Sequence record: PP355091.1
DNA length: 64,000 nucleotides
Reading direction: 5' to 3' (one strand)
Origin: Escherichia phage 235Ecol030PP
The notes beneath the pieces are model-generated. The model did no database searches. It was given only the letters and a program-made list of their open reading frames with translations, and had not been told where the DNA came from. Position numbers and translations under genes: made by a program. Numbering within the stretch: position 1 is the stretch's first letter; each line of letters starts with the position of its first letter. Positions 62,358 through 64,000 of the stretch are shown piece after piece.

Positions 62358-62571
62358 ATTTGACTTCCTCACCAGTACATAAATCATATTCAACTAAACG
62401 AATGGGTTCATGAATGCCATATCCCTGAACAGAAATTTCTGTCGTAGGATAAATTCCATCAATATCACCCATATTCCACGCTTCATTAAATTGCTGTTCG
62501 CCTGAATTACTAAACCACTCGGCGAAAGCATTTAGCACATCTTCAGAACCTTCAATAATTATCTTTGCCAT
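62350..62571 (-). CDS. hypothetical acidic protein, 73 aa
   Basis: ORF. Confidence 0.45.
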   Translation of the reverse strand: MAKIIIEGSEDVLNAFAEWFSNSGEQQFNEAWNMGDIDGIYPTTEISVQGYGIHEPIRLVEYDLCTGEEVKYD

Positions 62572-62933
62572 TACAAACTTTCGGTGAAGGTACGAGCGAT
62601 AACGTCGCGCTGCTGTTCCGGAGTCAGAGAGTTAAAGCGAACTGCATAACCGGATACACGGATGGTCAGCTGCGGATATTTTTCCGGATGCTTAACTGCA
62701 TCTTCCAGAGTTTCACGACGCAGAACGTTAACGTTCAGGTGTTGACCACCTTCAATTTTAACTGTAGGCTGTTGCTCAATTTCAATTTCACGGGCATGCA
62801 AACCATAGAAAATTTCTGGGTCTACAAAAGAGTCCTCTTTAAAGGTTTTAGAAACGATAATTCGTGCTTGAATACCATCTTCAAAATAAATAGTACCTTT
62901 GTGTGTGCCTTCAAGAATTTGATATGCTTTCAT
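62571..62933 (-). CDS. autonomous glycyl radical cofactor (GrcA/YfiD-like), 120 aa
   Basis: C-terminal half matches the PFL/GrcA glycyl radical region incl. RVSGYAV. Confidence 0.85.
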
Positions 62934-62940
62934 ATAAACC

Positions 62941-63270
62941 TCAATTAGAAAATAAATTTATCCAAGATTGTTCTTTAATTAAAAATGGCTCAGAATCATA
63001 TGCCATTAAACTCTGTGTGATTAGTCCTTTAAAAGGCCCATCAATAAATTCCATGGTAAAATATGGAATTTTATTCATTAGCCGTGCATTAGGAGCCGTG
63101 CACAAAACTCTGCATCCTTTGAATACGCCTTTTTGTAATTTGTATTGCTTAGGATAAAATTCGCTCAAAATGTTATTTTTTGCCAAAATTTCAAAATGAT
63201 TCACCAATTTATTTTTAATAGTTTTTGGTGAAAAATAAAGATATTCGAAAAGCTGAGTGTCTGTCATCAT
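62941..63270 (-). CDS. hypothetical protein, ~110 aa (start trimmed to MMTDTQ)
   Basis: ORF coupled to the upstream gene stop. Confidence 0.45.
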
Positions 63271-63806
63271 TGCATTCCGATTACGAAAAACTGTGGACGA
63301 GTAATACCACCAATGCAACATTTAATATTACAGCAGCAGTGTACAGTGTCAATATGGACACTATAAATCTTATCCATATCAGGAGATTTGACAGGCTCAT
63401 CAATTATATATAAAATTCGCGAAAGCTTTAAACCTCTGAACTTGCTTCCTTTATTACCGATAAAACTGCGCACAGAATCAGTAAATAAACGAAAACGTAT
63501 ATCATCATTAGAATAACGCGAAAATTCCTTTTTAATGTTATTTGCAGAAATTTTAGCGTAAGCTGAAGTATTAGAAAGAACAATAACTGTTCCGCCATCA
63601 TACAACCAATTAGCAGCAAAGTTAGTCACAGCAATTGATTTACCGGATTGACGCCCACCATCTAGTCGAAGTGTGCAATACTGTTTAAGTAAGTCTTCAA
63701 ATGGCGGGATATATTCGTTTTTACAAATTTCTTCTACTCTAGCATCAGAATGGTGTGTAAAAGCATTCATCAGGGATAGATAAGGACCAGTTAAAAATGT
63801 TCTCAT
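63267..63806 (-). CDS. P-loop NTPase-like protein with Cys-rich C-terminus, 179 aa
   Basis: Walker A-like DGGRQSGKS, Walker B-like ILYIIDEP. Confidence 0.55.
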   Translation of the reverse strand: MRTFLTGPYLSLMNAFTHHSDARVEEICKNEYIPPFEDLLKQYCTLRLDGGRQSGKSIAVTNFAANWLYDGGTVIVLSNTSAYAKISANNIKKEFSRYSNDDIRFRLFTDSVRSFIGNKGSKFRGLKLSRILYIIDEPVKSPDMDKIYSVHIDTVHCCCNIKCCIGGITRPQFFVIGMQ

Positions 63807-64000
63807 TTCTTCTCTCTAAATTTGGGCCATTCCGTGGCGCATGAATTGTCCATTTCTGTATTTACCCATTACCGCACTTGGGCTCGACCTTATTACAGGT
63901 TGGCGGGAATCCCTCACAGAATCATGAGGTCCAGCTTGTTCCCATTTTATTTGAATGTAAATAGATCTGAGTTAGGAATTACGGGCTGCATTAGCAACGG

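Follow-up and report, generated by a model that had tools for sequence, protein, structure and literature searches.

A candidate structured RNA motif upstream of vs.8 in a T4-like phage and its occurrence beside tRNA genes of other phages

Towards its right edge, the stretch of Escherichia phage 235Ecol030PP analysed here (record PP355091.1; 64,000 nucleotides (nt), in the following called the window) becomes rich in guanine and cytosine (G+C) and carries no apparent gene, which raises the question of what is encoded there. A sequence-only reading had described positions 63830-64000, by eye, as a G+C-rich and structure-prone block and had offered two explanations, a structured RNA or the 3′ end of a gene starting beyond the window. 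The enrichment is genuine: the block has a G+C content of 45.0% compared to 34.35% for the whole window, and this value is reached by only 0.77% of all 171-nt windows. It was also correctly noted that no open reading frame (ORF) of 60 codons or more is present, the sole ones in the block being a GTG-initiated ORF of 33 codons and an ATG-initiated ORF of 16 codons. As far as can be read from the sequence, the block is composed of 29 nt of the tail of an ipIII-type gene and of a non-coding spacer with one copy of a putative phage-specific structured RNA motif. Both explanations hold for a part of the block. The gene end is supported for positions 64000..63972 only, by comparison with the 98.6% identical region of phage vB_EcoM_G8; these 29 nt are a coding tail, and the remainder is non-coding, with all six frames closed across 63830-63971. 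The structured RNA is supported for the spacer, by covariation, by conservation across phage families and by a constant strand and position relative to transfer RNA (tRNA) genes. The presumed cut by the window boundary applies to the ipIII-type gene, of which the 29 nt including the stop codon lie inside, and not to the motif, which is contained completely in the window.

Structure of the junction motif and its covariation

The minus strand carries every gene near the right edge, and all features described below are located on this strand. The motif core, about 40 nt in length (63864..63904; covariance-model match 63913..63857), is predicted to form a three-way junction. The 5′ strand of helix P1 (GCCA, 63904..63901) is directly followed by hairpin P2 (ACCU 63900..63897, loop GUAAUA 63896..63891, AGGU 63890..63887), the joining segment J2/3 (CGA, 63886..63884), hairpin P3 (GC 63883..63882, loop CCAAGU 63881..63876, GC 63875..63874), the joining segment J3/1 (GGUAA, 63873..63869) and the 3′ strand of P1, consisting of U63868, the bulged G63867 and GGU (63866..63864). 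The P1 pairs of the window copy are A63901-U63868, C63902-G63866, C63903-G63865 and G63904-U63864. In general form, the model reads P1 (3-5 base pairs, bp), P2 with ACCU-GURNNA-AGGU, C(R)A, P3 (2-3 bp with a loop of 3-6 nt), GGUAA and the returning strand of P1. The P2 hairpin, the joiners C(R)A and GGUAA and the bulged G are near-invariant, whereas P1 drifts in sequence yet always pairs. A covariance model built from 42 distinct sequences detected the window motif with 72.5 bits (71.7 bits with filters off; E about 1e-20 to 1e-23), and the aligned copy fits the P2-C(R)A-P3-GGUAA consensus exactly. The next best match in the window reached 13 bits, so that with filters off the motif is single-copy in these 64 kb.

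The register of P1 emerged from a mutual-information scan without any imposed structure, in which three column pairs were found to be 100% Watson-Crick or wobble, P1 abuts P2, and the conserved bulged G (a purine) follows the first pair. A hand-drawn register with a 3-nt J1/2, which had been considered before, was paired to 70% (permutation p = 0.002) and was replaced by the one from the scan. Pairing was tested on an unfitted MAFFT alignment of the 42 distinct sequences. The three core P1 pairs are formed in 42/42 of them, with 22, 10 and 10 double-sided changes and three to five pair types each, and a repetition with 58 distinct sequences gave the same picture, the core pairs again being 100% paired. 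The covariation of the whole model amounts to 0.338, compared to 0.096 +/- 0.014 for shuffled alignments (0/500 as high), and slid partners do not exceed 0.085. In P3, the second pair is formed by C-G in 50 and by U-A in 6 of the 58 sequences and stays unpaired in the other 2; each of the short-loop variants (GUC/GAC, GCC/GGC, GCG/CGC and GCG/UGC) can pair as well. A single change, from A-U to G-C, was observed in P2; this hairpin is near-invariant and its support therefore comes from folding and not from covariation. Since the G-U and U-G pairs of P1 become mismatches on the other strand, the minus strand is singled out.

The search for known RNA families, which had been recommended as a check of the block, remained empty: neither ARAGORN nor Rfam 15 gave a match there. 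This is because no Rfam family fits the motif, and not because the block is empty. ARAGORN found 0 genes for tRNA or transfer-messenger RNA in the window, and the Rfam tRNA model left the motif unmatched both in the window and in other loci. None of the 4227 models of Rfam 15 (including riboswitches, ribozymes, group I introns, YrlA, GOLLD and ROOL) reached its gathering score in the whole 64-kb window; at E up to 10, nothing was detected at the motif on pieces of 1.6 kb or 166 nt, nor at the motif in seven other loci. The motif sequence was not found in the literature searched, although it may overlap with the 2023 catalogue of about 10,000 candidate viral structured RNAs, and the literature on vs.8 and denV, on T4 small RNAs and on T4 transcriptomes yielded nothing on this locus.

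Distribution across phages and association with tRNA genes

The window belongs to a T4-like phage (Tequatrovirus), and its final 1.5 kb are 98% identical to the Escherichia phages vB_Eco-B1.1 and vB_EcoM_G8. Sequence search with the right edge matched 886 phage records, and sensitive BLAST searches revealed that the interval 63824-63903 is retained in distant T4-like phages of Klebsiella, Enterobacter, Salmonella and Yersinia. A comparison of the window with T4-like phages shows 88-100% identity for a 32-nt core, next to a vs.8 gene with only 62-65% identity on the DNA and 38-47% on the protein level. Outside of this group, rV5-like phages (Vequintavirus: FV3, Murica, nomo), Pseudomonas phage PsgM04F and Vibrio phage F88 carry the core of about 40 nt with 86-95% identity, and a 32-nt stretch is 91-94% identical in a coliphage of 44 kb. 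In these non-T4-like carriers, the core is placed amid tRNA genes, the genes flanking it are unrelated to those of the window, and it is either unannotated or covered by dubious short ORFs. The records 'Campylobacter phage C15' (L015, MG065654.1; loci of the present collection carry L numbers) and 'A141' (MG065672.1) match like rV5-like coliphages; the host label of C15 looks doubtful because the record is classified as Vequintavirus and marked UNVERIFIED.

Further copies were collected by pattern scans of IMG/VR and metagenomes. True copies score 45-76 bits with the covariance model, chance matches of the pattern alone at most 25 bits. A bacterial origin was considered and rejected. A search at E up to 10 left all 5,426 complete E. 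coli genomes without a match, and among 185,579 bacterial and archaeal species genomes there were six pattern matches, compared to about nine estimated by chance, with sequences that misfit the motif; five of them were scored and stayed at or below 25 bits, while the remaining one hardly differs in sequence from one of these five. Because E. coli gave no match and the bacterial pattern matches are at chance level, the element is regarded as phage-specific.

Two variants were observed during the collection. In Karamvirus-like relatives of T4, two tandem copies lie about 115 nt apart (L027 5089-5256; L031 9015-9183; L107 357-525). It is the second copy that has diverged, its P3 being short (GCC-CGC-GGC or GUC-CGC-GAC), and in L027 this copy holds the only change in P2 (GCCU/AGGC). 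Furthermore, a look-alike CCTGTAATAAGGTAGGAATGTTGCGGTAA followed by a clear intrinsic terminator occurs in contigs of 21-52 kb (L039, 1352-1406; L042, L048, L053, L056). It has the P2 hairpin in common with the motif and scores 13-19 bits only; a distant relationship and a coincidence are both conceivable.

The tRNA context was counted in 33 loci without T4-like signature. In 29/33 loci, the strand of the motif carries a tRNA gene at a distance of at most 1.5 kb, and the other strand does so in none; of the four exceptions, two are loci whose sequence stops about 100-130 nt away from the motif. All tRNA genes in these loci (116/116) are co-oriented with the motif, the nearest one being 33 to more than 700 nt away. 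The motif of PsgM04F-like and 46-kb uncultivated phages is embedded in an untranslated leader of about 700 nt before the tRNA genes (L029 1930-2310; L004, L018, L020, L022, L032). This leader is built from repeated long stems (ACAGGUAAGAGCAUUG...CAGUGCUCUUAUCGUUGUGA) around variable inserts, one of which holds two hairpins resembling T-arms, and its elements gave no Rfam match. In the tRNA cluster of a 70-kb viral contig (L020 9535-9610), ARAGORN predicts a tRNA with anticodon CUA, labelled tRNA-Pyl, which is a possible amber suppressor. An uncultivated phage contig contains a group I intron (RF00028, 90.9 bits; L052 4112-4333) 2.4 kb from the motif.

Possible roles of the motif

Taken at the level of sequence comparison, the data demonstrate a selected, strand-specific, branched RNA-type element common to phages that share only gamma-proteobacterial hosts, and we consider it very probable that selection acts on the motif as RNA. 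The overall explanation that we favour, with moderate confidence, is a phage-specific structured RNA motif in long transcripts that would be read by a putative host component; that it acts in cis via such a host factor is put forward more tentatively. The motif would work inside long and largely untranslated transcripts. In most phages these carriers would be the precursor RNAs of tRNA clusters, and in T4-like phages a transcript that reads through from e, the ip genes and denV to the vs genes. The invariant hairpin together with the junction may be recognised by a conserved host component, either an enzyme of RNA processing or decay or the transcription machinery. Such a recognition could mark a point of processing or 3′-end protection, or could keep RNA polymerase reading through untranslated RNA. 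A conserved host component is proposed because gamma-proteobacterial hosts are the only common trait of the carrier phages. The element is taken to be embedded and not a separate gene because the pattern scan found neither sigma-70-like promoters nor intrinsic terminators in the window spacer (terminators scanned over 63000-64000); an isolated TTTACA (63961..63956) lacks a -10 box at the 17-nt spacing. The put RNA of phage HK022 and the boxA leaders of rrn operons, cis-acting RNAs that act on RNA polymerase and are a possible lead here, would explain an RNA read by host machinery in long untranslated operons, and the motif stands first in 16/28 non-T4 loci. They differ from it in that no sequence likeness can be demonstrated and in that the motif is not always found at the 5′ end of the cluster.

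Several observations weigh against this explanation. The invariance of P2 leaves almost no covariation in this helix, P3 comprises just 2-3 bp, and the helices are short altogether. From the broad alignment RNAalifold recovers P2 only; from T4-like sequences alone it recovers the 5′ hairpin (described below), P2, P3 and a second hairpin downstream, with nil covariation. Folds of single sequences are not more stable than shuffled ones, and the fold stability of the block is likewise ordinary (z = +0.45 for the minus and -0.61 for the plus strand), the block exceeding chance by conservation and covariation and not by thermodynamic stability. For some relatives, the minimum-energy folds favour other pairings of the 5′ strand of P2 or of the P3 region, and because many of the sequences are closely related, the shuffle controls overstate their independence. 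In addition, the position of the motif varies, being before all tRNA genes in 16/28 loci, between them in 7 and after them in 5, and in T4-like phages the tRNA cluster lies 6-8 kb upstream on the same strand. Finally, the motif of FV3 is flanked by a promoter-like site and a weak terminator-like hairpin, an arrangement which fits a separate small RNA gene better.

Such an autonomous, trans-acting small RNA, acting as decoy or sponge for a host protein or RNA and either expressed from its own promoter or cut from tRNA precursors as in the case of rnaC and rnaD, is in our opinion rather unlikely. In FV3, the promoter-like sequence TTTACA-17-TATCAT is located about 135 nt upstream, the weak terminator-like hairpin follows directly after the motif, and a strong promoter comes next. 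PsgM04F-like and 46-kb phages hold the core in a longer rod GUUGUGAC...GUCACAAC, a possible processing stem, and the co-orientation with tRNA genes would also suit a small RNA. However, the window spacer is without promoter and terminator pattern, and the scaffolds flanking the motif differ among phage families. No abundant stable RNAs of T4 are known besides its eight tRNAs and species 1 and 2. The latter, encoded by rnaC and rnaD, are likewise non-coding phage RNAs on the strand of the tRNA genes, but share no kinship in sequence or structure with the motif: the covariance models R1 and R2 detect no relative in the tRNA/rnaC/rnaD region of T4 with filters off, and the motif is located 6-8 kb downstream of this cluster in T4-like phages. 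A further non-coding RNA near phage tRNA genes is the Y RNA-like YrlA (RF02553), which Rfam does not detect at the motif; in L003 and L052 it gives weak sub-threshold matches at other places.

A new small riboswitch aptamer or self-cleaving ribozyme, with the junction as ligand pocket or active site and with P1 either controlling a downstream event or defining a cleavage site near the tRNAs, is quite unlikely. The architecture is typical for these classes, with variable stems around about ten invariant unpaired nucleotides (GGUAA, C(R)A, bulged G), and three short drifting helices with fixed junction nucleotides are also found in junction RNAs such as the purine riboswitch and the hammerhead ribozyme. 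Tandem copies like those of Karamvirus-like phages occur in some riboswitches. Nevertheless, Rfam 15 holds no riboswitch or ribozyme that matches the 166-nt piece at E up to 10, and neither a conserved expression platform nor a context of a cleavage site accompanies the motif. We know of no junction riboswitch or ribozyme whose consensus would fit its joiners (0, 3 and 5 nt) and sequences. Among the candidate alternative pairings tried as expression platforms, a terminator/anti-terminator pairing in FV3 and a pairing of the P1 3′ strand with GGCCC in T4-like phages are not kept across clades. Downstream features vary by family, and an invariant P2 stem would be unusual for either class. By-eye likenesses of 6-10 nt to known RNAs (the UGUAAU turn of signal recognition particle Alu RNA, GUAACAAGGU and AACCUG of the 3′ minor domain of 16S ribosomal RNA, the L11-binding GUAAUA hairpin and the anticodon loop of tRNA-Tyr) are at about chance level, and no claim is made on them. 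A precedent for small structured RNAs beside tRNA genes of tailed phages is given by the theta ribozymes, which resemble those of hepatitis delta virus and form nested double pseudoknots abutting the tRNA (PMC10879173). In contrast, the motif is a three-way junction without Rfam ribozyme match, and its distance to tRNA genes spans 33 to more than 700 nt.

An element acting at the DNA level, be it a recombination anchor at the edge of the internal protein (IP) locus, a target of a homing endonuclease or a recently transferred selfish fragment without RNA role, is very improbable. Close relatives differ in the upstream neighbour (ipIII, denV or ip4), similarity ends 40-90 nt upstream of the motif, and the IP locus is a known hot spot of shuffling (PMC4122927), all of which would suit such an element; the near-identity among coliphage families could stem from exchange. 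Against this, the pairing of P1 and P3 is kept by compensatory changes, G-U pairs and tRNA co-orientation pick one strand, and conservation of the motif extends to Pseudomonas and Vibrio phages as well as to T4-like genera that have diverged deeply. The link to homing was dropped, since the adjacent 'endonuclease' proved to be denV and not a homing enzyme. A comparison can be made with PeSL, the promoter/stem-loop cassettes of T4-like phages, in which an early promoter (TTTACW-N17-TAYWAT in the T4 group) is combined with a simple stem-loop, in many copies per genome and differing among phage groups (PMC2839356, PMC4122927). Both are conserved intergenic motifs in plastic T4-like regions including the internal-protein locus. 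The present motif differs in that the spacer lacks the early-promoter half, and in being single-copy, branched, covarying and common to several phage families.

An ordinary intrinsic terminator combined with chance G+C enrichment is less probable still. It is the 5′ hairpin CCUCA-UGAUUCUG-UGAGG (63912..63929), immediately 5′ of the motif, that is labelled as rho-independent terminator by a WebGeSTer prediction in one GenBank record, and in several phages the site follows late or structural genes. This hairpin, which is kept in T4-like phages with varying loops, is followed by GAUUCCC without a U tract, the pattern scan was negative, and terminators are not characterised by sequence conservation across families or by a branched structure with covariation.

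That the motif is protein-coding, either as the N-terminal 40 codons of Vs.8 annotated in T4 or as a small ORF, is scarcely credible: the frame runs open through the motif in T4 and L017 and hypothetical proteins are placed over it in several GenBank records, but the frame is broken by stops in 40/42 T4-like contexts, PHROG 1488 covers the 179-aa form starting at the downstream ATG, the short ORFs overlapping it among the tRNA genes of the other families are annotated in opposite direction or comprise no more than about 30 codons, and conservation is on the nucleotide level without synonymous-site pattern.

The surrounding spacer, its neighbouring genes and the start of vs.8

In 5′ to 3′ direction of the minus strand, the region contains the ipIII-type tail, a spacer of 165 nt (63807..63971) which makes up the G+C-rich block, the vs.8-like gene, vs.7 and the GrcA-like vs.6. 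The 3′ end of the ipIII-type gene (63972..64000), encoding an internal head (virion) protein, was assigned by six-frame translation and by its vB_EcoM_G8 homologue; it reads ...VANAARNS* with the stop codon TAA at 63974..63972, and its start lies outside the window. In vB_EcoM_G8, a 192-aa 'internal virion protein' (KMC07_gp121) terminates at the same spot.

The two short G+C stems quoted in the sequence-only reading correspond to real minus-strand hairpins, although GGGAATCCC is not itself a stem: it covers the 3′ arm of the 5′ hairpin (CCUCA-N8-UGAGG, 63929..63912) and the lead-in to the motif. The other one, GGCCATTCCGTGGCGC, is the second hairpin GCCA-CGGAA-UGGC (63826..63838), for which RNAalifold gives GCC/GGC in 22/22 sequences with nil covariation. 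Its pattern GCC-N7-GGC with an NGGAA loop is kept in all T4-like relatives, 15-30 nt before the ribosome-binding site of the next gene, and the consensus GCC-A[ACU]GGAA[UC]-GGC is invariant among them. The GGA in a short hairpin loop presumably resembles binding sites of the CsrA type, a putative likeness. As a whole, the T4-like unit comprises about 115-140 nt, with the 5′ hairpin, the junction motif, a variable linker and the second hairpin, and is usually located before vs.8, while its upstream neighbour varies between ipIII, denV and ip4. In L028, a Klebsiella phage, an IP-like gene separates the motif from vs.8, so that the motif is not tied to one gene.

An upstream ORF of 16 codons, MDNSCATEWPKFREKK (63803..63853), ends with a TGA (63805..63803) that overlaps the ATG of vs.8 (ATGA). 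A similar arrangement was seen in L016, and in ZN18 (L005) a difference of 1 nt joins the upstream ORF in frame, resulting in an ORF of 195 aa. It is probably not a conserved peptide, because relatives that lost the frame keep the nucleotides.

The vs.8-like gene (63267..63806, ATG at 63806) encodes a P-loop protein of 179 aa that belongs to PHROG 1488, residues 3-179 aligning to positions 2-177 of the 177 in the profile. Its sequence includes a Walker A-like GGRQSGKS and weakly resembles the ATPase portion of large terminase subunits (PHROG 2, E = 1.4e-5); the label 'RegB domain' in several GenBank records was not supported by our searches. In T4 (NC_000866.4 64253..64912; L036 978-1637), vs.8 is annotated with 219 aa, starting 40 codons upstream and running over the motif. 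A stop between or inside the motif and the downstream ATG is present in 40/42 T4-like contexts, the frame being open only in T4 and L017, and in the window an in-frame TAG (63818..63816) parts the motif from vs.8. The 179-aa form, which starts with MRTFLTG at about position 64792 of NC_000866, is spanned end to end by PHROG 1488. On account of these stops and of the profile, the T4 annotation is probably over-extended. Probably spurious are also the short 'hypothetical protein' coding sequences (CDS) placed over the motif, some of them on the opposite strand, as in L016, in L025-type loci, in PsgM04F (CDS0285/0286; L004 2275-2593) and in EcoPhCCP1 (XHQ01469; L014 1468-1563).

Further downstream, an ORF of 120 aa (62571..62933) ends in a glycyl-radical motif and corresponds to the GrcA-like autonomous glycyl radical cofactor, T4 vs.6. 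A first guess from this ORF end, an nrdD exon with a group I intron, was discarded, since the gene is the GrcA-like vs.6 and Rfam shows no intron.

At this point, the motif may be filed as a candidate new family within the orphan structured RNAs of phages. A more far-reaching proposal, which we hold to be unlikely, is a new functional RNA class of virulent gamma-proteobacterial phages, namely an aptamer that senses a ligand, a minimal ribozyme for self-cleavage or processing, or a put-like RNA reprogramming the host polymerase, that would control or mature untranslated tRNA operons and would have gone unrecognised in T4. If the motif as such is confirmed, the genome of phage T4, one of the most thoroughly annotated, would still hold an unrecognised RNA element beneath an over-extended vs.8 call. 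The near letter-for-letter conservation of 40 nt without shared neighbours, travelling with tRNA clusters, points to a sequence-specific interaction with the RNA or transcription machinery of the host or with a metabolite. The element is small, single-copy and present in genetically tractable phages (T4, rV5-like), and its function is directly testable. The few RNAs that are linked to phage tRNA clusters would be joined by a further family, and many gene models in GenBank would be corrected.

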